Below are positions 1-64,000 of a stretch of 64,000 nt of DNA, in pieces. Under the pieces are notes generated by a model. That model saw nothing but the letters and a program-made list of their open reading frames with translations, was not told the origin of the DNA and ran no database searches. Source of the DNA: an uncultured Pseudomonadales bacterium (GTDB lineage: Bacteria; Patescibacteriota; Microgenomatia; UBA1400; CAYXSR01); contig CAYSEI010000002.1 of NCBI GenBank assembly GCA_964430265.1, forward strand, positions 141,209 through 205,208, in the 5' to 3' direction. Within the stretch, counting starts at the first letter, position 1; each line of letters opens with the position of its first letter. Made by a program: the position numbers and the translations under genes.

Positions 1-1316
1 ACTGTGGAACTTCTTTGCGCAACAAAGGAGTTCAACCATTGCTTGATGCTGTAGTTCAATTTCTCCCCTCACCTCTTGACATAGAGGCAATAACAGGCTA
101 TAATCCAAACACGGAGGAAGAAGAAAAACGTCCTCCAAAAAAAGATGTGCCGATGGCGGCACTGGCATTTAAAGTTCAAGCTGATCCCCATGTGGGACGT
201 TTGACTTATTTACGTGTTTATTCAGGCACCTTAACATCTGGAAGTTATGTATATAACGCAAACAAAGAAAAAAGAGAACGTATTGGACGTTTGCTTTTAA
301 TGCATGCAGATAAAAGGGAAGAAATTGAAAAAGCAGAAGCCGGAGAAATTGTGGCAGTAGTTGGTCTCAAAGACACTGCAACCGGTGAAACGCTCTCGAA
401 TGAAGAAAACCCAATTGTTTTGGAAAGAATAGAATTCCCCGAACCGGTAATTTCTTTGGCAATTGAACCAAAGACAAGATCTGATCAAGAAAAGTTAAGC
501 TATGCATTAAAAAAGCTTTCTCAGGAAGACCCGACATTCCAAATTAAAGTTGATCGTGAAACAGGTCAAACAATTATTAAAGGAATGGGTGAACTACACT
601 TGGAAATTTTGGTTGACAGAATGAAACGTGAGTTCAAAGTGGAAGCAAATACAGGCAAGCCGCAAGTAGCATACAGGGAAACAATAAATAATACAGTTGA
701 AGCGGAAGGAAAATATATTCGGCAGTCCGGAGGCAGAGGTCAATATGGACACTGTTTCCTAAGATTAGAACCAAGAGAAAGAGGAGAAGGATATGAGTTT
801 GTTGACGAGATTCGGGGAGGATCAATTCCAAGAGAATTTATTCCTGCAGTAGAAAAAGGGGTAAAAGAAGCAATGGAAAACGGTGTATTGGCTGGATACC
901 CTCTTGTAGATATGGAAGTGGCTGTTTTTGACGGATCATATCATGATGTTGATTCATCAGAGATTGCATTTAAGATTGCAGGATCAACAGCTTTGCAAAA
1001 AGGAGTTAAACAAGCTGGTCCGGTTTTATTGGAACCAATTATGAACGCCGAAGTTACTACTCCTCAGAAGTTTATGGGAGATGTAATTGGTGATTTGTCA
1101 AGCAGACGAGCAAAAATTTTGGGCACGGAAAGCCGGAAAAATATTCGTATTATTACTGCGCTTGTTCCTTTAGCAGAAATGTCCAGCTATGCAACCAGAT
1201 TGCGTTCAATGACTGAAGGAAGAGCCTCTTTCTATATGGAGCCAAGTCATTATGAAGAGGTCCCGCAGAACATAACTGAACAGATTATTGAAGAAAAGAA
1301 TTTAATAAATAAATAA
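1..1316 (+). CDS. fusA: Elongation factor G, C-terminal ~437 aa; the gene starts upstream of the window (5' partial)
   Basis: The reading frame is open back to base 1. The translation has EF-G domain II-V sequence ([31 protein letters not shown], the C-terminal [12 protein letters not shown]-type region). It is the usual str-operon neighbour upstream of tuf. Confidence 0.9.
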
Positions 1317-1342
1317 AGTTAAAAAAATAAGGAGGATTTAAA

Positions 1343-2539
1343 ATGGCAGATTTTGATAGAACAAAACCGCACCTTAATATTGGAACAATTGGTCACGTTG
1401 ACCATGGTAAGACTACTTTGACAAGTGCAATTACAAAAACTTTGCACTCAGCAGGCGTCTCACCTAAATATTACGCTTATGATGAAATTGACAAGGCTCC
1501 GGAAGAAAAAGAAAGAGGTCTTACAATTTCAATTTCACATATTGAATACGAGACAGAAAATAGGCACTATGCCCATATTGACTGTCCCGGACACAAAGAC
1601 TTTGTTAAAAACATGATTACCGGTGCTGCACAAATGGATGGTGCAATTTTGGTAGTTGCAGCTACTGACGGCCCAATGCCACAGACAAGAGAGCATATTC
1701 TTTTGGCACGCCAAGTTGATGTACCTGCAATTGTCGTGTTTTTGAACAAAACAGACATGGTAGAAGATGAAGAGCTTTTAGAATTAGTTGAAACAGAAGT
1801 CAGGGAGCTTTTGAATAAATACAAATTCCCTGGAGACGAGATTCCGATTATTCGTGGATCTGCTTTAAAAGCATTAGAATGTGAATGTGGTAAAGAAGAC
1901 TGTGATGCATGCGGTCCAATTTTGGAATTAATGAGCAAAGTAGACGAATATATTCCGGAACCGGAAAGAGATTTAGACAAACCGTTTTTGATGCCGATTG
2001 AGGATGTTTTCTCAATTAAAGGCAGAGGAACTGTTGTTACAGGAAGAATTGAAAGAGGAATTGTTAAAGTAGGAGATGAAATTGAAATAGTTGGACTAAA
2101 AGATACTCAGACAACTACGGTTACCGGTGTTGAAATGTTTAAAAAGAGTTTGGATCAAGGTCAGGCCGGAGACAATGTTGGTGTACTTTTAAGAGGACTT
2201 AAAAAAGAAGATGTTGAAAGAGGTCAAGTTTTGGCCAAGACGGGAACAATTACTCCGCATTCTGAATTTAAGTGTGAAGTATATATTCTTAGCAAAGAAG
2301 AAGGCGGAAGACGCACACCTTTCTTTTCCGGATACAAGCCTCAGTTCTATATTCGAACAACTGATGTTACCGGAGAAATTGAATTGGAAGAAGGCGTGGA
2401 AATGGTAATGCCGGGAGATAATGCTAACATGACTGTTAAGCTGATTAATCCGGTTGCTGTTGAAGATGGTTTGCGATTTGCTATAAGAGAAGGCGGAAAG
2501 ACTGTTGGAGCCGGAGTTGTTACTGAAATCGTAAAGTAA
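1343..2539 (+). CDS. tuf: Elongation factor Tu
   Basis: 398 aa with [10 protein letters not shown] (P-loop), DCPGH and NKTD GTPase motifs; an AGGAGG Shine-Dalgarno lies 8 nt upstream. It contains an unusual [13 protein letters not shown] insertion (see findings). Confidence 0.95.
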
Positions 2540-2572
2540 GTAAAAAAAATTACTAAAGTTTAAGAGTAATCA

Positions 2573-2619
2573 CTAACCAGGCTTGACGCAAGTTAGGCCT
2601 GGTTAGAATTATTCTTTTT
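2573..2619 (+). terminator. Hairpin (10-bp perfect stem CTAACCAGGC/GCCTGGTTAG with an inner CTTG/CAAG stem) followed by AATTATTCTTTTT; intrinsic terminator after tuf and/or S10-leader attenuator
   Basis: The inverted repeat was read directly from the sequence. A T-rich tract follows it, in the tuf-rpsJ intergenic region. Confidence 0.4.
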
Positions 2620-2632
2620 GAAAATTTAAATT

Positions 2633-2941
2633 ATGCCTAAAGAACAGATCAGAGTTAGACTAAAGGCTTTTGATCATCGAGTGATTGATGATTGTTGCCA
2701 AAAGATAATTGAGACAGCACTTTCAACCGGTGCAAAAGTATCCGGTCCAGTGCCGCTTCCAACGGAAAGGAAGCTGATTGCGGTTAAAGCAGATCCGCAT
2801 GTACACAAAAGTTCTGTTCAACATTATGAAGTTTTGACACACAAGCGTTTAATTGACATTATTGAGCCAACGAATAAGACAATTGATTCGTTGATGCATC
2901 TAGATCTGCCTGCGGGAGTAGGTATAGAAGTAAAAATGTAA
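2633..2941 (+). CDS. rpsJ: 30S ribosomal protein S10
   Basis: 102 aa. MPKEQIRVRLKAFDHRVID...GPVPLPT motif typical of S10; first gene of the S10 operon. Confidence 0.95.
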   Translation: MPKEQIRVRLKAFDHRVIDDCCQKIIETALSTGAKVSGPVPLPTERKLIAVKADPHVHKSSVQHYEVLTHKRLIDIIEPTNKTIDSLMHLDLPAGVGIEVKM

Positions 2942-2979
2942 AAAGCGCTTTTTAAGTGCTTTTCTTTTTGGAAAGAAAA

Positions 2980-3615
2980 ATGAAGTTTTTATATGGAATC
3001 AAAAAAGACCAGACACAGACATTTGATAAACAGGGCAACCGCCTGGTGGTTACCCGTATTAATACAGCACCTTTAAAAATTGTACAAATTAAAGAAGAAG
3101 AAAAAGACGGGTATTCTGCGATACAAGTAGGAGTTGGTGAAAAAAAATTGAAAAACATAAAAAAGCCGACTAGGGAAAAATTAAAAAAAGCAGGATATAA
3201 AAAGACAGGGCCCAAATATCTTAGGGAAATAAAACTTGAAAAAAAAGCAGAAAATAAAATTGGCGATGAAATTAAAATTGTAGATATTTTTGCAGAAGGC
3301 GACAAAGTTAGAGTAAGTGGAGTGACCAAGGGAAAAGGGTTTACAGGAGTAGTTAAGCGTTGGGGTTTTAGGGGAGGAAGAAGAACACACGGTTCTTCCA
3401 ATGAGAGGAGAATTGGATCAATAGGTCAAGGTACAGATCCGGGAAGAGTTTGGAAAGGAAAGAAAATGCCAGGAAGAATGGGAACTGCAAAAAAAACAAT
3501 TAAAGGATTAAAAATATATAAAATAAACGAAGAAAATAATGAGATTTGGGTGACCGGACTGCTACCCGGAGGAAGAAATAGTCTTTTAAAAATAGAAAAG
3601 GAAGACGACAAATAA
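2980..3615 (+). CDS. rplC: 50S ribosomal protein L3
   Basis: L3-like N-terminus (LYGIKKDQTQTF ~ LGKKVGMTQIF) and GKGFTGVVKRWGF motif. I chose ATG 2980 with a GGAAAG RBS over the GTG at 2956 used in the ORF track. Confidence 0.9.
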   Translation: MKFLYGIKKDQTQTFDKQGNRLVVTRINTAPLKIVQIKEEEKDGYSAIQVGVGEKKLKNIKKPTREKLKKAGYKKTGPKYLREIKLEKKAENKIGDEIKIVDIFAEGDKVRVSGVTKGKGFTGVVKRWGFRGGRRTHGSSNERRIGSIGQGTDPGRVWKGKKMPGRMGTAKKTIKGLKIYKINEENNEIWVTGLLPGGRNSLLKIEKEDDK

Positions 3616-5705: not shown

Positions 5706-6059
5706 ATGGTTAAAAAAGCAAAAGCAGAAGCCAAGTTTATACGTATATCTCCGCAAAAAGTGCGGAAAGTTGTGGATGCAGTCAAAGATATGAATCCGCA
5801 AGAAGCTATATTAAACTTGGAATTTATAAATAAAAGAGCTTCAACACCTTTAAGAAAAGTAATTAAATCTGCAATCGCTAATGCAACACATAATTACGAG
5901 ATGGAAAAGGAAAATCTGAAATTTAAAGAAATACAAATTGGTGAAGGGCCTACATATAAAAGATGGCAGCCTGTTTCAAAAGGCAGAGCCCACCAAATAT
6001 TAAAAAGAACAAGTCATATAAAAGTAATTTTAGAGGAGAAAAATGGGACAGAAAGTTAA
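5706..6059 (+). CDS. rplV: 50S ribosomal protein L22
   Basis: 117 aa, AKAEAKFIRISPQKVRKVVDAV typical L22 start. Confidence 0.9.
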   Translation: MVKKAKAEAKFIRISPQKVRKVVDAVKDMNPQEAILNLEFINKRASTPLRKVIKSAIANATHNYEMEKENLKFKEIQIGEGPTYKRWQPVSKGRAHQILKRTSHIKVILEEKNGTES

Positions 6060-6684
6060 TGCACATTCATTCAGACTAGGAAATCTTTACGATTGGAAAT
6101 CACAATGGTATTCTGACGGAGATGATTACCAAAGGTATTTATTGGAAGACGTAAAATTAAGAAATCTTCTACAGGAAAAACTGCAAAGGGCTGGTTTAGT
6201 TAAAACAGAAATTGAACGTTCAATGAAAAAGTTAAGAATCATTGTTTATGTTTCGCGTCCCGGAGTAGTAATTGGAAGGGGAGGTTCCGGACTCAAAGCT
6301 TTGAAGAAAATTATTGCAGAAGAAATTGATATTGATGCAGAAAAGAATTTAAAAATTGATGTTAAAGAGGTTAAAAAACCAGATTTATCAGCAAAATTAA
6401 TTGCTGAAGAAATTTCCGGACGTTTAAAATCACGATACCCCCACCGTAGAGCAGTCAGCAAAGCTATGGAAAAAGTAATGCATGCAGGAGCAAAAGGTGT
6501 TAAAATAACACTTTCCGGTAGAATTGGTGGAACTGAAATTGGTAGAACAGAAAAATATTCAGAGGGAACAGTTCCTTTGCAAACTTTGAGAGCGGATATA
6601 GATTATGCATTAGTTCCATCTTTAACAAAATCTGGTTATGTAGGAGTTAAGGTTTGGATTTACAAAGAAGAAAAGGAATTATAA
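6043..6684 (+). CDS. rpsC: 30S ribosomal protein S3
   Basis: MGQKVNAHSFRLG..KH domain..GRIGG S3 motifs. Confidence 0.95.
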   Translation: MGQKVNAHSFRLGNLYDWKSQWYSDGDDYQRYLLEDVKLRNLLQEKLQRAGLVKTEIERSMKKLRIIVYVSRPGVVIGRGGSGLKALKKIIAEEIDIDAEKNLKIDVKEVKKPDLSAKLIAEEISGRLKSRYPHRRAVSKAMEKVMHAGAKGVKITLSGRIGGTEIGRTEKYSEGTVPLQTLRADIDYALVPSLTKSGYVGVKVWIYKEEKEL

Positions 6685-6685
6685 A

Positions 6686-7090
6686 ATGTTACAGCCTAAA
6701 AAACAGAAATACAGAAAACGATTTCGCGGTAAATTAAAAGGTAAAGCAAGCCGTGGATATGAAATATCTTTTGGAGATTTTGCTTTAAAAGCAAAACAAA
6801 GATGCTGGTTAAAAACAAGGCAAATTGAAGCGGCCAGAAAAGTAGTAACCAATTATACTAAAAGAACTGGAAAGCTTTGGATTCGGGTTTTCCCGGATAA
6901 ACCAATTTCCAGCAAGCCGTCTGGTGCAAAAATGGGCGGAGGAAAAGGGGATGTTGTTGATTATGCAGCACCAGTCAAGCCAGGAACAATAATTTTTGAG
7001 CTGGCAGGTGTAGAAGAAGATTTAGCAAGGGAAGCTTTTCGTAGAGCCGGAGCAAAACTTCCGGTTAAAACTAAATTTATAACAAAGTAA
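6686..7090 (+). CDS. rplP: 50S ribosomal protein L16
   Basis: MLQPKKQKYRKRFRGKLKG L16 N-terminus. Confidence 0.95.
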   Translation: MLQPKKQKYRKRFRGKLKGKASRGYEISFGDFALKAKQRCWLKTRQIEAARKVVTNYTKRTGKLWIRVFPDKPISSKPSGAKMGGGKGDVVDYAAPVKPGTIIFELAGVEEDLAREAFRRAGAKLPVKTKFITK

Positions 7091-7097
7091 AATAAAT

Positions 7098-7304
7098 ATG
7101 AAAAAAGAAAGAAAACAAGAACTAAAAAGCAAAACAATACGTGAGCTGAAACAATTTATAACCGAGTCAGAAAAAGAACTGGCAAGAATGAAGTTAGAAG
7201 CTGCAACCGGCAAAATTGAAGACAGGCATGCATTATATAAAAAAAGAAAAGAAATAGCAGTGGCAAAAACCATATTGACAGAACAAAAGAAGGAGGAAAA
7301 GTGA
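7098..7304 (+). CDS. rpmC: 50S ribosomal protein L29
   Basis: 68 aa helical protein (ELKSKTIRELKQFITESEKEL), L16-L29-S17 order. Confidence 0.85.
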   Translation: MKKERKQELKSKTIRELKQFITESEKELARMKLEAATGKIEDRHALYKKRKEIAVAKTILTEQKKEEK

Positions 7305-7528
7305 AAAAACGTTTTAAGGGTACTGTTGTAAGTGACAAAATGGACAAGTCAGCAATAGTTGAAGTTAAAAGAAGCTGGCGGCATCCTTTATACAAAAAGG
7401 TTATGAAGACCGGTAAAAGGTATTTAGTCGATAACCGGATGGATGCAAAAGAGGGAGACAAAGTCATTATTGAAGAATGCAGGCCATTAAGTAAAAGAAA
7501 ACATTTTAAGATTGTGGAAAAAATATGA
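7301..7528 (+). CDS. rpsQ: 30S ribosomal protein S17
   Basis: 75 aa, [25 protein letters not shown]17 signature. Confidence 0.9.
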
Positions 7529-7902
7529 TTCAATTACAAAGCACATTAGTACCAGCAGATAACTCAGGAGCAAGAAAACTTCGGGTTATTCATATACACG
7601 GACAATCCTATCGTCCTAAATTTGGCGGTATTGGAGATATTGTGACTTGTGCAGTTGATAAAGCTAGAGCAAATGGACAGGTTGAAGATGGACAAGTAGT
7701 AAAAGCAGTAGTGGTGCGTACAAAAAAAGAGCATCGTAGATCGGACGGGTCATATATCCGTTTTGGTGATAATGCTGCAGTTGTTATTGACGGACTTAAA
7801 AACCGATTGCCGGTTGGAACTCGGGTATTTGGACCAATTGCAAGAGAAATAAAAGAACTGGGTTACAATGATATTGTTTCTCAAGCCAAGGAGGTATTAT
7901 GA
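7525..7902 (+). CDS. rplN: 50S ribosomal protein L14
   Basis: [35 protein letters not shown]14 signature. Confidence 0.95.
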
Positions 7903-8204
7903 GAATTAAAAAAGGTGATAAAGTAAAGATTTTAAGGGGTAAAGATAAAGGTAGAACTGGAGAAGTGAAAAAAGTGTTTCCAAAGAAAAATAAAATTATT
8001 GTTAAAGATATTAATGTATATAAAAAACATGTTAAACCTAGAGGAGAGCAAGAGCCTGGTGGCATAGTTGATATTACTAAGCCGATTGATGCAAGTAAAG
8101 TTTCTTTGGTTTGTCCTAATTGTGGGGAAAAAACCCGTATCGGACGCAGAGTAACAAAATCAGGAAAAGAACGAATTTGTAAAAAATGTCAGGAAAATCT
8201 ATGA
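7899..8204 (+). CDS. rplX: 50S ribosomal protein L24 with a C-terminal CxxC..CxxC zinc-ribbon-like segment
   Basis: [26 protein letters not shown] motif; C-terminal [14 protein letters not shown]. Confidence 0.85.
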
Positions 8205-8755
8205 ATAATTCATTAAAAAAACAGTACCAGGAAGAAATTATACCCAAATTAAAAAAAGAATTGGGAATAGAAAATAAAATGGCGGTTCCTAAACTTAAAA
8301 AAGTAGTTGTGAATATGGGGATTGGAGACATTAGTAATAAAGAGGATTCAATTAAAAAAGTGCGCAGTGCTATAGCTGCTATAACAGGACAGCAGCCAGT
8401 AACCAGATCTGCCAAAAAATCAATTGCAGAATTTGGTGTTACGCAAGGGGATACGATTGGATTATCAGTAACTTTAAGAGGAAAAAAGATGTATCAGTTT
8501 TTAGAAAGACTGTTTCGTATTGTTTTGCCTAGGGTAAGGGATTTTAATGGTGTATCCAAAAAGTCTTTTGACGGACAAGGCAACTATACTTTAGGTCTGG
8601 AGGAACAGACCCTTTTTCCTGAAGTAGATTATGATAAAATTGATAAGGTCCGCGGATTTGAAATTACCATTGTTACTAATTCCAAAGACGATAAAAAATC
8701 ACTAATGTTATTAGATTTAATGGGAATGCCTTTTAAAAAGGAAGAAGGAGCTTAA
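8201..8755 (+). CDS. rplE: 50S ribosomal protein L5
   Basis: L5 motifs (PKLKKVVVNMGIGD..). I chose ATG 8201, which overlaps the rplX TGA as ATGA and has an AGGAAAA RBS, over the upstream ATG 8186. Confidence 0.9.
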   Translation: MNNSLKKQYQEEIIPKLKKELGIENKMAVPKLKKVVVNMGIGDISNKEDSIKKVRSAIAAITGQQPVTRSAKKSIAEFGVTQGDTIGLSVTLRGKKMYQFLERLFRIVLPRVRDFNGVSKKSFDGQGNYTLGLEEQTLFPEVDYDKIDKVRGFEITIVTNSKDDKKSLMLLDLMGMPFKKEEGA

Positions 8756-8758
8756 TTT

Positions 8759-8944
8759 ATGGCAAGTAAAAGTAAAGAAGTCAAACAAAATAAAGAGCCA
8801 AAATACAGTACAAGAAAAGTTAATCGTTGTAAACTTTGTTCCCGTCCTAGGGCTTATATGCGTAAATTCGGTTTATGCAGACTTTGTTTTAGGGAATTGG
8901 CACAGAAAGGAGAACTACCAGGAGTTACAAAAGCAAGCTGGTAG
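8759..8944 (+). CDS. rpsZ: 30S ribosomal protein S14 type Z (zinc-binding)
   Basis: 61 aa, CKLCSR..CRLC four-Cys motif, between L5 and S8. Confidence 0.9.
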
Positions 8945-8953
8945 AAAATAATT

Positions 8954-9346
8954 ATGTGGTCAGATACAATTGCAGATATGCTAGCAAGAATTAGAAACGC
9001 TTACCTGACAAACAAGAAAGCGGTAGATGTTCCCTACTCTAAAACAAAAAAGAAAATTGCCCAAGTTTTACAAGATTTAGAATATCTTTCTTCAATTAAG
9101 GTTCAAGAAGAAGGGGTGAAAAAGAAATTGGTAATTAAACTTAAATACAAAGATGATGAAGCGGCAATCAGGAATTTAGAAAGGGTGTCTAAACCGGGTT
9201 GCAGGATTTATGTAACTCATGATAAACTGCCGGTGGTCTTGTCCGGTTACGGACAGGCAATTGTATCAACAAGTAGAGGGATTATGACTGCAAACGAAGC
9301 TAGAAAAAAAGGTATAGGAGGCGAACTAATTTGTAAAGTTTGGTAA
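8954..9346 (+). CDS. rpsH: 30S ribosomal protein S8
   Basis: SDTIADMLARIRNA S8 N-terminus. Confidence 0.95.
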   Translation: MWSDTIADMLARIRNAYLTNKKAVDVPYSKTKKKIAQVLQDLEYLSSIKVQEEGVKKKLVIKLKYKDDEAAIRNLERVSKPGCRIYVTHDKLPVVLSGYGQAIVSTSRGIMTANEARKKGIGGELICKVW

Positions 9347-9351
9347 TAATT

Positions 9352-9906
9352 ATGAGTAAAGTAGGAGAAAAGATAATACTAATACCAGAAAATATAGAAA
9401 TAGATATCAAAAACAGCTTGGTTAAGGTTAAAGGACCAAAAGGAGAACTTGAATTAACTTTGCCAACTGGTATAAAAACTGAGCAAAAGGAAAATACTTT
9501 ATCAGTACAAAGGAAATCCGATTCAAAAAGGTTAAAGGCTTTGCACGGTACATATAGAACTTTGATTGCAAATATGATTTTGGGAGTTAATAAAGGCTAT
9601 AGTAAAATATTAGAATTACACGGAGTTGGATATCGAGCTCAGATCAAAGGAGAAAAATTAGTAATGAGATTGGGATTTTCTCACCCAGTTGAGGTTGATC
9701 CTAAACAGGGAATAAGTTTTACAGTTTCAGATAAAAAACAAATAAAAATTGAAGGAATTGACAAACAAAAGGTAAGTCAGACTGCAGCGGAAATAAGGGC
9801 TATTAGGAAACCAGAACCTTATAAAGGTAAAGGTATCCGCTATAAGGGAGAAGTTATTAAACTGAAACCAGGTAAGGCAGCTAAAGTAGGAGAAGGAGAA
9901 GTTTAA
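9352..9906 (+). CDS. rplF: 50S ribosomal protein L6
   Basis: [26 protein letters not shown]6 signature. ATG 9352 is preferred over the TTG at 9340 used in the ORF track. Confidence 0.9.
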
Positions 9907-59049: not shown

Positions 59050-60034
59050 GAAAATATTTGATAAAAAAAAGTTCTTGCAGTTTTGGCAATGGTTGAATAA
59101 ACAAAAAAGGTTAAAAATTAACTTTTTCCTGCTTTTGGGTTTAATCAGTCTTACCCCAACGCAAAACTATTATTCAAAGCTTGAAATCCAGCCCGGCCGA
59201 CCGGTTCTTAGACAAACGGATTTAGAGGTAGAAAAAATTTCTGACTACCCGGTTAATGTAACCAATAAGAATGCCCCCAGAATTTCTGCTTCATCAGTCT
59301 TAATAGTTGATAAGGATTCCAAAGCAATTATCTTTCAAAAAAATCCGGATTTACAACTTTTCCCAGCGTCAATTACCAAAATTATGACAGCACTTGTTGT
59401 TTTGGATAACTACCAACTGGATAAAGAAATTACAGTAGAAGAATCATACAAAGTAGGAATGATAATGGGGCTGGAAAAGGGAGAAATAGTAACAGTTAGA
59501 AGTCTTTTAAAAGGAATGCTGATTGGATCTGCAAATGATGCAGCAATAACTCTTGCCAGACAAGACGCTAATGGAATAATTGGGTTTGTTGAAAAAATGA
59601 ACCAAAAAGCAGAAGAACTTAATTTAGAAAATACCCATTTTACCAATCCGATTGGTTTGGACGAACAAGGCCATAAAACAACAGTACACGATTTAATGGT
59701 TTTAACTGATATTGCCTTGGACAATGAACTTTTTAAACAATTAGTGGGGATAAAAAGAGTGATAATAAAAAGTAATGGAATTGGAGACACAGAAAAGCAA
59801 TATAATCTGGAGAATATTAACCAATTATTAGGAAATATAAAAGGACTTAAAGGAGTTAAAACCGGCTGGACGCAATATGCAGGAGAATGCCTTGTTTCTT
59901 GGACAGAAAGAGATGCTCACGGTATTTTAGTTGTGGTTTTAGGAAGTGCTGACCGGTTTGGAGAAACACAATTATTAACTGAATGGGTATTTGAAAACTT
60001 TGAATGGGAAGCTATTGATACCACTCTTCAGTAA
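59036..60034 (+). CDS. D-alanyl-D-alanine carboxypeptidase (peptidase S11, PBP5/6-like)
   Basis: SxxK (ASITK), SxN (GSAND), KTG (VKTGWT) motifs; N-terminal TM. Confidence 0.8.
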   Translation: MKITEKIFDKKKFLQFWQWLNKQKRLKINFFLLLGLISLTPTQNYYSKLEIQPGRPVLRQTDLEVEKISDYPVNVTNKNAPRISASSVLIVDKDSKAIIFQKNPDLQLFPASITKIMTALVVLDNYQLDKEITVEESYKVGMIMGLEKGEIVTVRSLLKGMLIGSANDAAITLARQDANGIIGFVEKMNQKAEELNLENTHFTNPIGLDEQGHKTTVHDLMVLTDIALDNELFKQLVGIKRVIIKSNGIGDTEKQYNLENINQLLGNIKGLKGVKTGWTQYAGECLVSWTERDAHGILVVVLGSADRFGETQLLTEWVFENFEWEAIDTTLQ

Positions 60035-61061
60035 TTATTGGTAGGTAAGCAAGAAACTCATTATCACCTTCAAAAACTAAAACCGGTTGCATGAATCTTT
60101 GTGGTTCAAAAGAATCATAGTATGCAATATAAACCCTTCTGATTGATACTTGTTTATTCTCACCTTTCCAGCTTGCAATATATCCTTCGCCTTGCTGTAG
60201 TTGTTTCCAGGCTTGATCAGCTGTTTTGATTGGATAAGTAGTTTCTGAATCATAATTAACCGGATAATAATTGTATTCTGCTTCCACAATTTTCATTTTT
60301 GCATTTGCATAATCGGTAAATATGATTGAAAAAATACCGTGTTCTTTAGTAGGTGTTAAAACAGGAAATTCATTAATATCATTACGATACATTTCAACAC
60401 GGACAAAGTCTGCTTCCGAAAGGCTTACAGCAGGAACAATCTCATTAGTCATTGCTTTTTCATAAAAAACTTCAGCTATATCAGTCGGAAGATCATCTGT
60501 ATCTAAGCCTGACTGGGCAAGAAATTTCTTTGCTTCAATTTTTGCTTGTTCTTTTCCCGGAAGGCTGATATTCAAAAAAATATTTTGATCGTTTTGCCAA
60601 TCGTATTTAATAGTAAAAGAACCATCAACAATATTCATTTCCAAGGTGGAAGTAGCATTAGTTCTTTTCCTCCAGCGGTAAACTTCTGAACTTACAGCCT
60701 GAGGCTCACCGGTATATCCCATTTGGGTTGCTTCGGTTTTAGCTCTTTCCAATGCCAGAAGATTAGGCCGTTGATAAGGCATAAAATATACTTTTGCCCG
60801 ATCAGATAATGTAGGCAGTTCTCCTGAAGGAGTTTGTAAAGAATATTTTAAATCAGTGGGATAATTACTCCTTGGGAATTTTAGTCTGTCCAGTTTACCA
60901 AAATCCACTGTTGGAGGCGGTGGTGGAGGCGGGTTTAATTTTTTGTAAATGGAGATAGCAGTGCTGATAGTAATTCTTAAAGTAAAAAAGGCAGCCAGCC
61001 CAATTCCTGCATATTTTAAACCTTTACGGGTATAATGTGCAGTTTCGGTTAAGTTTGTCAT
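60012..61061 (-). CDS. Hypothetical membrane-anchored extracytoplasmic protein with a poly-Pro linker
   Basis: N-terminal TM, then PPPPPPPT, then a ~300-aa domain of unknown family. Confidence 0.4.
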   Translation of the reverse strand: MTNLTETAHYTRKGLKYAGIGLAAFFTLRITISTAISIYKKLNPPPPPPPTVDFGKLDRLKFPRSNYPTDLKYSLQTPSGELPTLSDRAKVYFMPYQRPNLLALERAKTEATQMGYTGEPQAVSSEVYRWRKRTNATSTLEMNIVDGSFTIKYDWQNDQNIFLNISLPGKEQAKIEAKKFLAQSGLDTDDLPTDIAEVFYEKAMTNEIVPAVSLSEADFVRVEMYRNDINEFPVLTPTKEHGIFSIIFTDYANAKMKIVEAEYNYYPVNYDSETTYPIKTADQAWKQLQQGEGYIASWKGENKQVSIRRVYIAYYDSFEPQRFMQPVLVFEGDNEFLAYLPIITEEWYQ

Positions 61062-61105: not shown

Positions 61106-62530
61106 ATGAAAAATATTAGAGTAAGAATCGCACCTTCACCAACAGGTATGCCGCATGTGGGAACGATGTGGCAGGCACTTTTTGTCCGTTCCTTTGCTAA
61201 ACACTTTAAAGGAAAATTTATAGTTCGGATTGAAGATACTGATCAAGACAGAATAGTTAAAGGTGCGGAACAAGCCTTGTATGATGCGCTGGAATGGCTA
61301 GGTCTTGAAGAAGATGAAAGCCCAAGAAAAGGCGGTAAATATGGGCCGTATAAGCAGTCAGAAAGGTTGGAGACATACAGAAAATATGCTGAAAAGCTTT
61401 TAGAAAAAGGCCATGCCTATTACTGCTTTTGTTCAGAAGAGCAATTAAAAAAACTACGCGAAGAACAGAAAAAACAGAATCAAATACCTAAATATGACGG
61501 CCATTGCAGAACTCTTTCTCAACAAGATGTAAAAAAGAAACTACAGAATAATGAAAAATATGTAGTCAGAATGAAGATTCCGGACAGCAAAAAAATTATT
61601 GTTAATGATCTTTTAAGAGGTGAAGTTAAGTTTGATAGTAATATCTTGGACGAGCAAATAATTTTAAAATCAGACGGTTTTCCCACTTACCATTTAGCAG
61701 TTGTAGTTGATGACCATTTAATGAAAATCAGCCATGTTGTTAGGGGAGAAGAATGGCTTTCTTCTGCACCTAAACATGTTCTTTTGTACAAATATTTAGG
61801 CTGGGAAATTCCCACTTTGGTACATACACCAATATTGAGAAATCCAGACAAAACTAAACTTTCAAAAAGACAAGGCCATACAAATGTGATGTGGTTTAAA
61901 AAACAGGGATTTTTGCCTAAAGCGTTGCTTAACTTTTTAGCTCTTTTAGGTTGGTCCCATCCCCAGGGAAAAGAAATTTTCTCTATAGAGGAATTTATCA
62001 AGCACGTGCATTTAAAAGACTTGTCTGTTATTGGACCGGTTTTTAATATGGAAAAACTGGACTGGATGAATGGGAAATACATTCGCAACCTGTCGGAAAA
62101 AGAATTATTTGAATATGTTAAAAAATATTCACGCTTTCCTATAGAAGAAATTGATTATAAATTAATTCTGCCGCTTTTACAGGAAAGAATTAAGAGGCTG
62201 GGTAATGTAGATCAATGGCTCGGATTTATATTTGAAGAAGTGGAATTTGATAAAGAAGAACTTTATAAAAAGGGTGGGAACCAAGAACTAATTAAAGAAC
62301 AGTTTGAAACAATAGCAAACAAACTGAAAGATATTGAAGAGTGGGAAACAGAAGAAATAGGGGAAACGCTTAAACAAATAGTGATTAATCGTGATCAGTG
62401 GAAAACAGGCCAATATTTTATGGCATTAAGAGTGGCAATTACCGGATCTTCAATCTCTTTGCCTCTTTTTGAATCAATTGAATTATTGGGAAAAGAAAAA
62501 ACACTTAAACGCCTCAAAACTGCTTTATAA
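61106..62530 (+). CDS. gltX: Glutamyl-tRNA synthetase
   Basis: HIGH motif (PSPTGMPHVGT), KMSKS motif (KLSKR), 474 aa. Confidence 0.9.
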   Translation: MKNIRVRIAPSPTGMPHVGTMWQALFVRSFAKHFKGKFIVRIEDTDQDRIVKGAEQALYDALEWLGLEEDESPRKGGKYGPYKQSERLETYRKYAEKLLEKGHAYYCFCSEEQLKKLREEQKKQNQIPKYDGHCRTLSQQDVKKKLQNNEKYVVRMKIPDSKKIIVNDLLRGEVKFDSNILDEQIILKSDGFPTYHLAVVVDDHLMKISHVVRGEEWLSSAPKHVLLYKYLGWEIPTLVHTPILRNPDKTKLSKRQGHTNVMWFKKQGFLPKALLNFLALLGWSHPQGKEIFSIEEFIKHVHLKDLSVIGPVFNMEKLDWMNGKYIRNLSEKELFEYVKKYSRFPIEEIDYKLILPLLQERIKRLGNVDQWLGFIFEEVEFDKEELYKKGGNQELIKEQFETIANKLKDIEEWETEEIGETLKQIVINRDQWKTGQYFMALRVAITGSSISLPLFESIELLGKEKTLKRLKTAL

Positions 62531-62537
62531 ATTCCGG

Positions 62538-62560
62538 ATTTCAAATCTGAAATCTGTTTA
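62538..62560 (+). terminator. Weak hairpin GATTTCA-AATC-TGAAATC followed by TGTTT, right after the gltX stop
   Basis: Read directly; 7-bp AT-rich stem. Confidence 0.25.
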
Positions 62561-62614
62561 AAAATGCTGAATATTTGAATTTAGAAAATGGTTTTTATAT
62601 AATGAAGATTAATT

Positions 62615-63655
62615 ATGAAATTTTTTAAGACTCTTCGTTGGATAATTTCCCTTCCTTTATGTCTGTTGTTATTTATAATGATAATTATTGGCTTAAATAG
62701 CGTTTCTATTTCAAGTAATTTAAGCAACCCAGAGACCTTAAAAAAAAGTTTGGATAAAGGCGGAGTTTATAAAGATCTTCCACGAATAGTTACAACCCTT
62801 ATTAAATCTAATCAAAAAGGAAGCGAACTTAGTCAATTACCTTTAGGCGAAAAACAGATGGAATCTTTAATAGGAGGTGTTTTTGAACCAAATTGGGTGA
62901 AGAAAAATGTTGAAAAAGTAATTGATTCAGGATATCTATTTTTAGAAGGAAAAACCAATATTCCTCGTTTTACAATTGATATAACAGACAGAAAGACAAT
63001 TTTGATTACAGAGTTAAACACACAAATTCAAAATACAATTGAAGAGTTGCCAGTATGCAGTCCTATGCAGGAAGCACAAATTATTAACAACAAAGTTAAT
63101 CCGGTTGAAATTGGTTGCTGGCCAAGTTCAATAGATAAATCAAAAGCTAACCAAATGGGTGCACAAATGGGAAAACAAATAGAAGGACAGTTAAATAACA
63201 ATGAGATGTTAAAAGACGGCTCTTTTAAATCAAAAGATTTTATAAAAATTAAGAGAACAGAAGCTGCAAAAATTCAACAGGCATATTTACACTTTAAAAA
63301 AGTACCACTATACATTTTGTCATTAATTTTTGTATTATCCTTGATTATATTTGTAATAGTGCCCAATATGACAAATAAACTTAAAACAATTGGATTTATT
63401 TGGATAATATCTAATTTAATTTTATTGGGTTTGCAGATGTTTATTAGGACTCAGTTATTCAACCTGTTGGCTCAAGAATTCAAAAAACAAGCTGAATTTA
63501 AAAGTCCGGAGAGATTGTTGCAGCTAGTCAATAAACCAATTAACTTAGCTTTACAAAGTATTTCAAACCAGGTTATTATTTACAGTTTAATAATGCTGAT
63601 TTTGGGTATAGTTATGATTATTCTTGGTAGTAAGACAAAATCCTCTCAAAATTAA
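62615..63655 (+). CDS. Hypothetical membrane protein (N-terminal TM, C-terminal 2-3 TM helices)
   Basis: 346 aa ORF; no recognisable family. It is flanked by duplicated gltX 3' ends. Confidence 0.4.
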   Translation: MKFFKTLRWIISLPLCLLLFIMIIIGLNSVSISSNLSNPETLKKSLDKGGVYKDLPRIVTTLIKSNQKGSELSQLPLGEKQMESLIGGVFEPNWVKKNVEKVIDSGYLFLEGKTNIPRFTIDITDRKTILITELNTQIQNTIEELPVCSPMQEAQIINNKVNPVEIGCWPSSIDKSKANQMGAQMGKQIEGQLNNNEMLKDGSFKSKDFIKIKRTEAAKIQQAYLHFKKVPLYILSLIFVLSLIIFVIVPNMTNKLKTIGFIWIISNLILLGLQMFIRTQLFNLLAQEFKKQAEFKSPERLLQLVNKPINLALQSISNQVIIYSLIMLILGIVMIILGSKTKSSQN

Positions 63656-63698
63656 AATATAATTTGTTTTAATTTTAGTTATTTGGACAAAGACATAT

Positions 63699-63760
63699 CT
63701 CTCTTTGAATCAATTGAAGTTTTGGAAAAAAAAACACTTAAACGCCTTCAGAAAAAAGTT
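63699..63760 (+). pseudogene. Diverged duplicate of the last ~60 nt of gltX (translates to SLFESIEVLEKKTLKRLQKKV* versus the gltX tail LFESIELLGKEKTLKRLKTAL*)
   Basis: Direct comparison with 62464-62530: shared blocks TTGAATCAATTGAA and CACTTAAACGCC in the same order. Confidence 0.5.
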
Positions 63761-63825
63761 TAATTTTCCTAGAGTTTAAATTTTTTGACTTCGCGGGAAA
63801 ATTAAGATATTGTTAAACAATAGCT

Positions 63826-64000
63826 ATGAACAAAAAAACCTCAAAAATCTTTATTATATTTCTATTAACTCTTCTGATTTCAGCTTTAGCATATTACTTT
63901 TTTCTAAAGCCGGAAAAAAAATATACCGGTAAAATGGAAAAAGTACGTCTGGCACTTTCCCAGTTGGAAGCAACTTCTTTAATTCGGGTGGCTTTAGACA
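63826..64000 (+). CDS. Hypothetical protein with an N-terminal signal/TM segment; 3' partial at the window end
   Basis: ATG 63826, open frame to the end of the window; MNKKTSKIFIIFLLTLLISALAYYFF. Confidence 0.4.
   Translation, partial: MNKKTSKIFIIFLLTLLISALAYYFFLKPEKKYTGKMEKVRLALSQLEATSLIRVALD

Follow-up and report, generated by a model that had tools for sequence, protein, structure and literature searches.

Organization of the gltX locus

The window (the whole 64-kb stretch of DNA analyzed here) belongs to a Microgenomates-type CPR bacterium and holds an intact gltX gene (61106..62530), a single membrane-protein gene downstream of it and, beyond that gene, a second, partial copy of the gltX 3' end. 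All features described below lie on the + strand, with the exception of one gene upstream of gltX. The gltX product is a full-length, 474-aa class I glutamyl-tRNA synthetase (GluRS), in which the catalytic and anticodon domains are both present (Pfam tRNA-synt_1c, 3.5e-108; Anticodon_2, 9.1e-27) and the profile is covered to its last position. Upstream, a 349-aa gene on the - strand (60012-61061) forms a divergent pair with gltX, and this pair is kept in all Microgenomates-type loci examined. Close to the gltX 3' end, positions 62463..62514 encode LFESIELLGKEKTLKRL, which is the best-conserved block at the GluRS C-terminus and whose motif is kept across 37 CPR GluRS C-termini. The functional tail of the gene follows, KTAL and a TAA (62515..62530, stop codon at 62528-62530).

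Immediately 3' of the gltX stop, a weak 7-bp AT-rich hairpin can be read from the sequence (GATTTCA-AATC-TGAAATC, 62537..62554); it recurs in the closest relative, L082, with one pair changed to G-U, and was not called as a terminator in terminator scoring. The 84-nt spacer between gltX and the membrane gene differs from that of L082 at 7 positions and holds a promoter-like TTGAAT-N17-TATAAT (62575..62603), recognized by its consensus match alone (10/12). The 346-aa membrane-protein gene (62615..63655) is separated by a 43-nt spacer (63656..63698), which has no match in the window or the compared loci and is absent from L082, from the second copy of the gltX end. This copy consists of a core encoding LFESIEVLEKKTLKRL, with one codon deleted (63699..63747), and a tail, QKKV and a TAA (63748..63763), that has diverged from the tail of gltX. 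The gltX stop, hairpin and 346-aa ORF thus lie between the copies as first described. A promoter-like TTGACT-N17-TATTGT (63785..63813) then precedes the start, at 63826, of an SsuA/NMT1-type substrate-binding-protein (SBP) gene that extends beyond the end of the window, 240 nt past the second copy; its family assignment comes from Pfam NMT1/NMT1_2 and TIGR01728 matches of the L082 orthologue. The TTGACTTC block and the start of the SBP gene are kept in L082.

The membrane protein between the copies

The 346-aa protein has an N-terminal TM helix, a ~200-aa helical extracytoplasmic cap with two conserved cysteines, and three C-terminal TM helices. It had been described as a protein of unknown family, which holds in that it has no Pfam or NCBIfam match, but not at the cluster level, where it matches 1262 protein clusters; the protein is not an orphan. 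In a 51-sequence alignment of the family, R8, K43, Y52, D104, Y107, G112, F119, C148, C168 and P170 are near-invariant, and no histidine is invariant or near-invariant. The family carries no toxin or immunity annotation, and a Foldseek search of the protein against the PDB returned nothing under E = 0.2.

In general architecture the protein resembles the lipoprotein intramolecular transacylase Lit (PDB 7b0o), which likewise has four TM helices and an extracellular cap, but the two share 7% sequence identity and no profile link, and the protein described here is 130 residues longer. The catalytic pair of B. cereus Lit, His85/His153 (PMC8275575), has no counterpart in the family, so that we describe it as having a Lit-like four-helix fold without the Lit catalytic histidines.

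The original prediction had regarded this gene as a candidate for horizontally acquired cargo. Its composition did not bear out a foreign source: GC3 is 0.248 as compared with a window mean of 0.246, the low GC1 is typical of membrane genes here, and a composition and codon test gave no signal of foreign origin.

A second, truncated copy of the gltX 3' end

The end of gltX had been reported to recur downstream with its blocks in the same order, and pairwise alignment confirmed that this repeat is genuine. Copy 1, inside the gltX end (62463-62514), and copy 2 (63699-63747) are identical at 45/49 aligned bases (92%), with one 3-nt gap. A repeat search splits this core into segments of 36 nt at 86% and 22 nt at 95%, offset by 3 nt, and blastn-short, run against the window and 86 loci, joins them into a single match with one gap (52 nt, 86.5%; E = 8.5e-6). 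The local alignment score of 71 is ~16 sd above that of 300 shuffles (25.3 +/- 2.8, maximum 35), and the matching blocks, TTTGAATCAATTGAA and ACACTTAAACGCCT, are complex sequence, colinear and in the GluRS frame, so the similarity goes beyond A-rich low-complexity matching. The repeat is the best short-range direct repeat of the entire 64-kb window, and its copies lie on either side of the insert, with copy 1 belonging to the 3' end of gltX itself. The estimate that the copies are roughly three-quarters identical applies to a forced 150-nt alignment (74%), but not to the true core. The regions flanking this core show no significant similarity between the copies (tails, P = 0.26), and no other gltX-like sequence was found within 62531-63698.

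Copy 2 lies in a frame that is open from 63656 to a TAA at 63761-63763 and reads ...DISLFESIEVLEKKTLKRLQKKV, as compared with ...SISLPLFESIELLGKEKTLKRLKTAL in GluRS. It therefore still translates to a GluRS C-terminal peptide and stop, as had been proposed, although the proposed end of the copy, 63760, falls 3 nt before the stop codon. The sole indel between the copies is one whole codon, missing from copy 2, and copy 2 is also without the conserved Gly of the LGK motif. Copy 2 (63699-63763) is a genuine remnant of a gltX 3' end, truncated on its 5' side and dead.

Distribution of the membrane gene and of copy 2 among relatives

Among the loci examined, just two, those of the window genome and of its 89% relative, L082, have the membrane gene after gltX. 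The relatives at 70% (L083) and 61% (L085-L087) keep the upstream synteny, lack the membrane gene and carry unrelated genes downstream; across all relatives, the upstream order aspS, peptidase, 349-aa gene, gltX is kept and the downstream genes vary. A 305-aa gene located after gltX in L085/L086 was considered as a homologue of the membrane protein and ruled out, also by HMM search. Searching about 90 other gltX loci with an HMM of the membrane family revealed no member near gltX, and the nearest other homologue in our searches (P0002, 36% identity) has a different context. Of two metagenome scans, that with the membrane-protein alignment gave 600 pattern matches and 0 relatives, and that with the conserved 349-aa neighbour gave only 5 distant loci (40-53% identity), all of which lack the insert. 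An empty site, in which gltX is followed directly by the SBP gene, was found in no relative, each having different genes after gltX, so that the boundaries of the insert are putative; in one locus (L092), an SBP homologue lies 5.5 kb from gltX, inverted.

In L082, the membrane gene is kept, the flanking genes are colinear with those of the window, and the spacer downstream of the membrane gene is 79 nt shorter. The genes that follow encode the SBP, a DUF7790 protein, a 5'-nucleotidase and a 71-aa ORF. Neither the insert nor, in L082, the 3.7 kb beyond it yielded an integrase, transposase or other mobility gene, in agreement with the earlier observation that no integrase remains, and no tRNA was found near the insert. 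The L082 spacer shows no significant local alignment with copy 2 or with gltX ends (P = 0.09-0.32). In a right-anchored global test (P = 0.014-0.017), it fits the window spacer minus its left ~75 nt (z = 2.3, P = 0.017): the right 56 nt of the window spacer, which include half of copy 2, align with it (P = 0.017), whereas taking copy 2 out of the window spacer leaves no significant alignment (P = 0.27-0.42). These alignments hint that some 75 nt of the relic may have been deleted in L082, rather than inserted later in the window lineage. L082 thus keeps the membrane gene with no recognizable second copy, literally the combination that the original prediction had counted against itself, but we do not take this as a refutation, as its spacer fits a deletion of the relic better than a later insertion in the window.

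Mosaic similarity within the gltX end

The divergence between the two copies is strongly heterogeneous, with 4/49 mismatches in the core and 10/15 in the last five codons (Fisher, 1.4e-5). Among GluRS proteins, the tail after KRL is variable, and the similarity between the copies stops where the conserved core meets this variable tail. The tail of copy 1, KTAL, is common to the window and L082 and differs from that of copy 2; together with the sequence after it, it is nearly identical to the corresponding stretch of L082 (local score 74, shuffle mean 15.3). A simple duplicate is expected to decay evenly and the heterogeneity thus favors recombination between two separately evolved coding ends, joined at the conserved block; the mosaic would fit such an origin better than it fits uniform decay. 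We also considered that the tail of copy 2, with one base restored, matches the VFNF-type long tail of L086/L087, which would make copy 2 the ancestral end, and dropped this argument, the resemblance being suggestive but not significant (P = 0.06-0.07).

A second case was found on an unrelated CPR contig, L003, where a gltX-tail duplication has a 96-nt identical core followed by 13/28 mismatches, with the stop codon aligned (Fisher, 2.7e-10); 8 of the 13 mismatches fall at third codon positions. The topology is that of the window, namely an intact gltX, an insert and a 5'-truncated orphan 3' end in the same orientation, and here too the similarity ends at the junction of conserved core and variable tail. 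L003 is an independent, fresher gltX-tail duplication with the same mosaic. Its insert carries the housekeeping GTPase gene typA/bipA, so that it, too, is not a classical mobile element.

Between the window and L082, synonymous divergence has a change point at ~62300 (support interval 62087-62456; rates 0.305 and 0.138; permutation P = 0.001), which suggests that a recombination breakpoint is visible in the 3' part of gltX. The low-divergence block extends past copy 2 into the SBP gene (8/48), and the change point is therefore not specific to the insert; we rejected its reading as the left edge of the insert in favor of a general recombination mosaic.

Proposed origin of the second gltX end

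Combining these results, we consider it somewhat more probable than all else (about 0.55) that an insertion into the gltX tail displaced the old gltX end, leaving copy 2 behind. In the ancestor shared by the window genome and L082, a ~1.2-kb DNA segment would have entered gltX by recombination within the conserved final ~70 nt of the gene. The segment would have brought its own gltX 3' end, a short promoter-bearing spacer and a single membrane-protein gene. As the incoming DNA supplied a usable 3' end, gltX would have been kept intact (copy 1 and the KTAL tail), and the other gltX end would have been pushed 1.2 kb downstream, directly before the SBP gene. Having no function there, the displaced end would have decayed, losing one codon in the window genome and most of its length by deletion in L082. 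Of this history, the repeat, its reading frame and mosaic similarity, the restriction of the membrane gene at this site to one clade and the independent parallel in L003 are shown; that the repeat and the membrane gene arrived in one event, which of the two gltX ends is native and which enzyme was involved are inferred.

As for the route, we lean towards homology-anchored recombination rather than a site-specific integrase that has since been lost, because no recombinase lies nearby and the insert, native in composition, holds just one gene. A circular fragment might have entered by a Campbell-type single crossover, or DNA taken up from a related cell by homology-facilitated illegitimate recombination. 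The reading with which this analysis began, integration of an element into the 3' end of gltX, is partly supported: the relic, the clade-restricted gene, the mosaic and the L003 case agree with such a footprint, but the lack of an integrase and of foreign composition does not.

A possible though clearly less probable alternative is that the membrane gene was placed without any duplication, or had been there from the outset in this clade, and that ~50-80 nt of the gltX end were copied into the next spacer afterwards, in the window lineage only, either by replication template switching or by tandem duplication of the gltX end together with the membrane gene and subsequent loss of the second membrane gene. 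The shorter spacer of L082 and its lack of a recognizable copy 2 would follow directly from such a history, and the core of copy 2 is indeed nearest to the window's own gltX (45/49) and next to that of L082 (43/49), its divergence of 8% being not above the synonymous divergence between the two genomes (0.14-0.30). Outgroup-polarized three-way site patterns in the core give one informative site each way on the age of copy 2. One core site (AAA vs GAA) groups copy 2 with copy 1 of the window, and, within the 52-nt core, the copy 2 branch is no longer than that of L082, so that the relic could be younger than the arrival of the membrane gene. Conversely, the G-to-T change that is specific to the window in the E(L/V)L codon is not shared by copy 2, which still has the ancestral G. 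A later copy is also difficult to reconcile with the contrast between a 92% core and an about random tail, and with the failure of the L082 spacer to align once copy 2 is taken out of the window spacer; it further requires an additional rare event beyond the arrival of the gene. A simple segmental or tandem duplication, which should diverge evenly and double everything between its units, does not fit a locus with heterogeneous divergence and only one membrane gene.

Less plausible still, and a special case of the displacement that we favor, is a remnant of a site-specific integrative element (phage or island) whose attP carried a gltX 3' end. The repeats would then be attL and attR, and deletion would since have removed the integrase together with most of the cargo. 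Direct repeats with a ~50-nt core, one of which overlaps the 3' end of the target gene, are what such an element would leave, and a 49-bp att core is reported for a phage beside gltX in Aggregatibacter actinomycetemcomitans, a loose parallel since that site is intergenic. The 1.2-kb insert is, however, filled by one intact gene with its own promoter-like site, with no recombinase gene or pseudogene in it and none in the 3.7 kb downstream in L082. Its native composition and the housekeeping GTPase gene in the parallel insert of L003 speak against an element as well, and none of 5 GluRS-encoding viral contigs carries a gltX-end fragment elsewhere on the contig.

It is very improbable that selection keeps copy 2 for a function, whether as a small ORF of 26 codons that starts with the TTG at 63683 or as an element, regulatory or RNA, serving the transporter gene downstream. 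An open frame of 35 codons in 28% GC DNA has a chance of ~0.05 by a rough estimate from base composition, and the indel is a whole codon, but the copy is absent from L082, where the promoter block and the genes on either side have stayed in place, it has neither a stable RNA fold (z = 0.08) nor an Rfam match, and the conserved Gly is gone. Chance similarity or a metagenome assembly artefact, which AT-rich sequence, a match that is partly an A-run and an uncultured source might suggest, can be dismissed almost entirely given the shuffle scores, the 4 substitutions and one indel between the copies, which leave no collapsed or duplicated k-mer path, and flanking genes that are colinear with the independent assembly L082.

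Comparison with known systems

Elements that integrate into the 3' ends of tRNA or protein genes leave a textbook footprint of direct repeats, one of which overlaps the target 3' end, and themselves supply the replacement for that end. The gltX locus shares with phage, ICE and genomic-island integrations at tRNA, tmRNA and protein-gene 3' ends an intact target, a 5'-truncated copy of its 3' end beyond the insert, direct orientation and a core of tens of nucleotides. It differs from them in its lack of a mobility gene and in a single-gene insert of native composition; neither an excised form nor an empty site is known for it. In the literature we found no description of gltX as a 3'-end integration target, the sole match being the site of A. 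actinomycetemcomitans phage S1249, whose 49-bp att core lies in the intergenic region between csp and gltX (PMC10087258). The topology of intact gene, insert and truncated copy in direct orientation is also that of a Campbell-type single crossover, such as a suicide-plasmid insertion, but here a natural circular donor is hypothetical, and the diverged tails require a donor from a related but different lineage.

The mechanism has a precedent in C-terminal displacement and homology-facilitated illegitimate recombination, through which an intact gene comes to be followed by orphan 3' ends (PMC5361080); for the displacement in rhs/CDI/T6SS effector loci, such recombination was proposed by Jackson 2009, as cited in Kirchberger 2017 (PMC5361080). 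In these loci, and by our reading at gltX, the DNA that enters is held by a conserved stretch of the gene and brings a new 3' end and a downstream gene, the old 3' end is shifted downstream as an orphan, no integrase is needed, and the similarity ends at the junction of conserved core and variable tail. The target here is an essential housekeeping aminoacyl-tRNA synthetase (aaRS) rather than a polymorphic toxin, however, the displaced piece spans ~20 codons, the 4-residue tail has no toxin domain, the co-inserted gene encodes a four-TM membrane protein rather than an immunity protein, and there is a single orphan instead of an array. The likeness is one of mechanism only, and the gltX locus is not a member of this group.

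The locus represents a known kind of footprint at a new site, small and decaying, which changes no current view. If our reading is right, the relic timestamps and localizes one gene gain in a reduced, uncultured CPR genome, and an essential aaRS gene can act as an undamaged insertion site. Together with L003, it suggests that simply scanning the DNA downstream of intact genes for gene ends truncated on the 5' side would detect integrase-free gene acquisition where compositional methods fail, as they do in such lineages because donor and recipient are alike. More speculatively, and on balance doubtfully, the conserved last ~20 codons of gltX might be a recurrent, integrase-independent landing pad in CPR (Patescibacteria), at which single genes, a four-TM envelope protein gene here and typA/bipA in L003, are captured from related cells by recombination anchored in this block, each event swapping the C-terminal tail of GluRS and orphaning the old one. 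Were this the case, such sites would allow gene gain to be traced in organisms believed to rely on taking up DNA, and would constitute a housekeeping-gene version of C-terminal displacement, so far described for polymorphic toxin loci.

A diverged copy of the gltX end follows the membrane-protein gene

In the window, gltX (61106-62530; 474 aa; Pfam tRNA-synt_1c, 3.5e-108, and Anticodon_2, 9.1e-27) is followed by an open reading frame for a 346-aa membrane protein (62615-63655), and the spacer 3' of this frame contains a second, 5'-truncated copy of the gltX end, whose core at 63699-63747 repeats 62463-62514. A repeat search resolved the two cores into 36 nt at 86% and 22 nt at 95% identity with a 3-nt offset, and blastn-short aligned them as one 52-nt match (86.5%, one gap, E = 8.5e-6, about 1 Mb searched). 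The local score between the copies was 71, against 25.3 +/- 2.8 for shuffles; the pair is the best short-range direct repeat across the 64-kb window, and a DNA search of these 64 kb found no further copy of the gltX end. The cores differ by 4 substitutions and one codon lost within an A-run, and the GluRS frame stays open through the second copy, from 63656 to a TAA at 63761-63763, encoding DISLFESIEVLEKKTLKRLQKKV and a stop where gltX has SISLPLFESIELLGKEKTLKRLKTAL and a stop. With this score, E-value and preserved frame, the gltX 3'-end duplication around the membrane gene described in the original prediction is real. Beyond the core, similarity was not significant (copy tails, P 0.26), and the second copy showed neither predicted RNA structure (z 0.08) nor an Rfam match.

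Synteny breaks at the gltX 3' end

The best species-level genome match to the GluRS was a Candidatus Roizmanbacteria (54%), the neighbouring matches being Microgenomates/Patescibacteria MAGs, and closer relatives were taken from the protein database by GluRS identity (contigs L082, 89%; L083 and L084, 70%; L085, L086 and L087, 61%). The upstream order aspS, S11 peptidase, 349/350-aa gene (other strand), gltX is kept in L082-L087, and the divergent pair of the 349/350-aa gene and gltX was found across many Microgenomates loci. Downstream of gltX, gene content differs: the membrane gene recurs in L082 (89% identity), where an SsuA/NMT1-type substrate-binding-protein (SBP) gene comes next, whereas L083 has a convergent RibD_C gene that overlaps the stop of gltX, and L085-L087 have a 305-aa gene unrelated to the membrane gene. 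In L083 (4948-4951), L085 (9430-9437) and the more distant contig L003 (7388-7391), the next gene overlaps the gltX stop by 4-8 nt, yet is a different gene each time; genes are thus tightly packed at the gltX 3' end, which in this group of relatives is also the point at which synteny breaks. The members of the membrane-protein family that a profile HMM recovered were confined to the window, L082 and, in an unrelated context, contig L081 (36%); about 90 other gltX loci had none close to gltX. Being absent near gltX in all other loci searched, the membrane gene in this position is specific to the window/L082 clade.

On the upstream side, the window's 349-aa protein (60012-61061, minus strand), the product of gltX's conserved divergent partner in every Microgenomates-type locus examined, has an N-terminal membrane helix, a PPPPPPP run and no Pfam family. 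Its identity is 31-68% over about 20 complete loci and 97% for the 138 residues that the L082 contig contains, and its long invariant motifs include MPYQRPNLLALE, YDWQND, SLSEADFV and VFEGDN.

Comparing window positions 61106-63999 with L082 positions 460-3274, we found that synonymous differences per comparable codon drop at about 62300, within gltX, from 0.305 to 0.138 and keep the lower level to the end of the membrane gene (change point support interval 62087-62456, permutation P 0.001), with 0.208 in the upstream 349-aa gene. We take this step for a recombination breakpoint within the 3' portion of gltX; the low divergence runs on into the SBP gene (8/48), which makes the breakpoint part of a larger mosaic and not the edge of the insert. 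The membrane gene matches gltX in amino-acid divergence at about half the synonymous divergence, suggesting that it may be under relaxed or diversifying selection.

A core/tail mosaic and the age of the second copy

Mismatches between the two copies in the window number 4/49 in the core and 10/15 in the next five codons to the stop (Fisher 1.4e-5), and GluRS residues after KRL are freely variable. Such a step should not arise in a copy decaying neutrally in place, and should be expected if two separately evolved gltX coding ends were joined at the conserved LFES..LGKEKTLKRL block. Outgroup polarisation of the core, where variable sites are few, gave an ancestral G in the second copy against a derived T in gltX, and an A common to both copies at a site with G in L082 and L083. 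The second copy's tail seemed to resemble the longer VFNF tail of L086/L087, but this likeness was not significant (P 0.06-0.07) and was dropped as evidence.

In L082, the spacer between the membrane gene and the SBP gene spans 48-51 nt, compared with 127 nt in the window, and holds no recognisable second copy (local alignments to that copy or to either gltX end, P 0.09-0.32). This relative thus retains the membrane gene and lacks the second copy, the pattern that the original prediction had named as counting against it, and a later local duplication in the window lineage is a serious rival, albeit one we consider unlikely. Two spacer models bear on it. If the L082 spacer derives from a spacer like the window's by loss of the left ~75 nt, it should align with what remains, and a global alignment to the final 56 nt of the window's spacer, a stretch that takes in the right half of the second copy, bore this out (z 2.3, P 0.017; 0.014 in a separate run). 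If the window instead has an L082-like spacer with the copy inserted, its spacer minus the copy should align with that of L082, and it did not (P 0.27 and 0.42). The comparison mildly favours the view that the common ancestor already carried the relic and that L082 has since lost most of it.

A second gltX-end duplication in a distant contig

We searched all 91 gltX loci for a further copy of the gltX end belonging to the same locus. The DNA-level scan was positive only for the window and for L003, a Saccharibacteria-labelled MAG contig (CAZQCZ010000014.1; GluRS 50% identical to the window's); the protein-level scan returned L003 only, missing the window's shorter relic. In L003, the intact gltX (5898-7391) is followed by a convergent typA/bipA (7388-9193) with overlapping stop codons, and a 5'-truncated gltX fragment (Anticodon_2, 1.7e-13) lies about 330 nt past typA/bipA and ends at 9673. 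The copies share an identical 96-nt core (7265-7360 and 9547-9642), and their last 28 nt carry 13 mismatches, 8 at third codon positions, with the stop aligned (Fisher 2.7e-10; tail peptides RRVERAISIF and RRINRAASIL, each with a stop). Directly beyond the fragment, GC drops from about 0.52 to about 0.40. L003 has no recombinase, its insert is a housekeeping gene, and a search for its close relatives found none. It is an independent case that repeats the window's topology and core/tail mosaic in a much younger state, and it indicates that recombination within the conserved gltX end, duplicating that end, has occurred more than once in CPR bacteria.

The insert and its protein

The insert is one intact gene with its own promoter-like sequence match, TTGAAT-N17-TATAAT. 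Neither the insert nor the 3.7 kb downstream in L082 contains an integrase or transposase domain, no tRNA gene lies within 14 kb, and no empty site was found in the relatives; contig L092 has an SBP homologue 5.5 kb from gltX in the opposite orientation. The suggestion that the membrane gene is foreign found no echo in its composition (GC3 0.248; window mean 0.246 +/- 0.033), and its low GC1 is common to other membrane genes in the window. Separately, three very AT-rich IMG/VR contigs (L096, L097 and L098; GC 0.22-0.24), probably large phages or viruses with their own aaRS, carry genes for full-length GluRS homologues (37-38% identity) that are extended at the C terminus by a long stretch of about 80-90 residues.

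The 346-aa protein has no Pfam or NCBIfam family. Exhaustive phmmer retrieved 1262 cluster representatives at E <= 1e-3, of which 422 reach <= 1e-10; most are full length (330-450 aa), and the near-invariant residues include two extracytoplasmic cysteines. The same architecture is seen in Lit, an enzyme with four TM helices, an extracellular cap and a pair of catalytic histidines (PMC8275575); however, the family of the 346-aa protein lacks a conserved histidine and any sequence link to Lit, which rules out that identity. An envelope function at the membrane's outer face is our guess.

Model and comparison with known systems

The most economical account would be a single insertion in the ancestor of the window and L082, in which incoming DNA recombined inside the conserved gltX end and supplied a 3' end that kept gltX whole, while the other gltX end was left orphaned just ahead of the SBP gene. 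The predicted insertion with a replacement end is supported in part: the mosaic and the L003 parallel speak for it, the missing integrase and native composition against.

Site-specific integration would leave this topology, with the copies as attL/attR, and Campbell-type or homology-facilitated illegitimate recombination matches it equally well. We favour the integrase-free version because no recombinase was found, each insert is a single gene with native composition, and L003 offers a parallel case of this type. Homology-facilitated illegitimate recombination is the mechanism proposed for the 'C-terminal displacement' seen at rhs and T6SS loci (PMC5361080). The footprint is thus of a known kind, and the window adds a new example at a new site in a little-studied phylum, the significance of which would rise if a survey found the gltX end to be a recurrent landing site.
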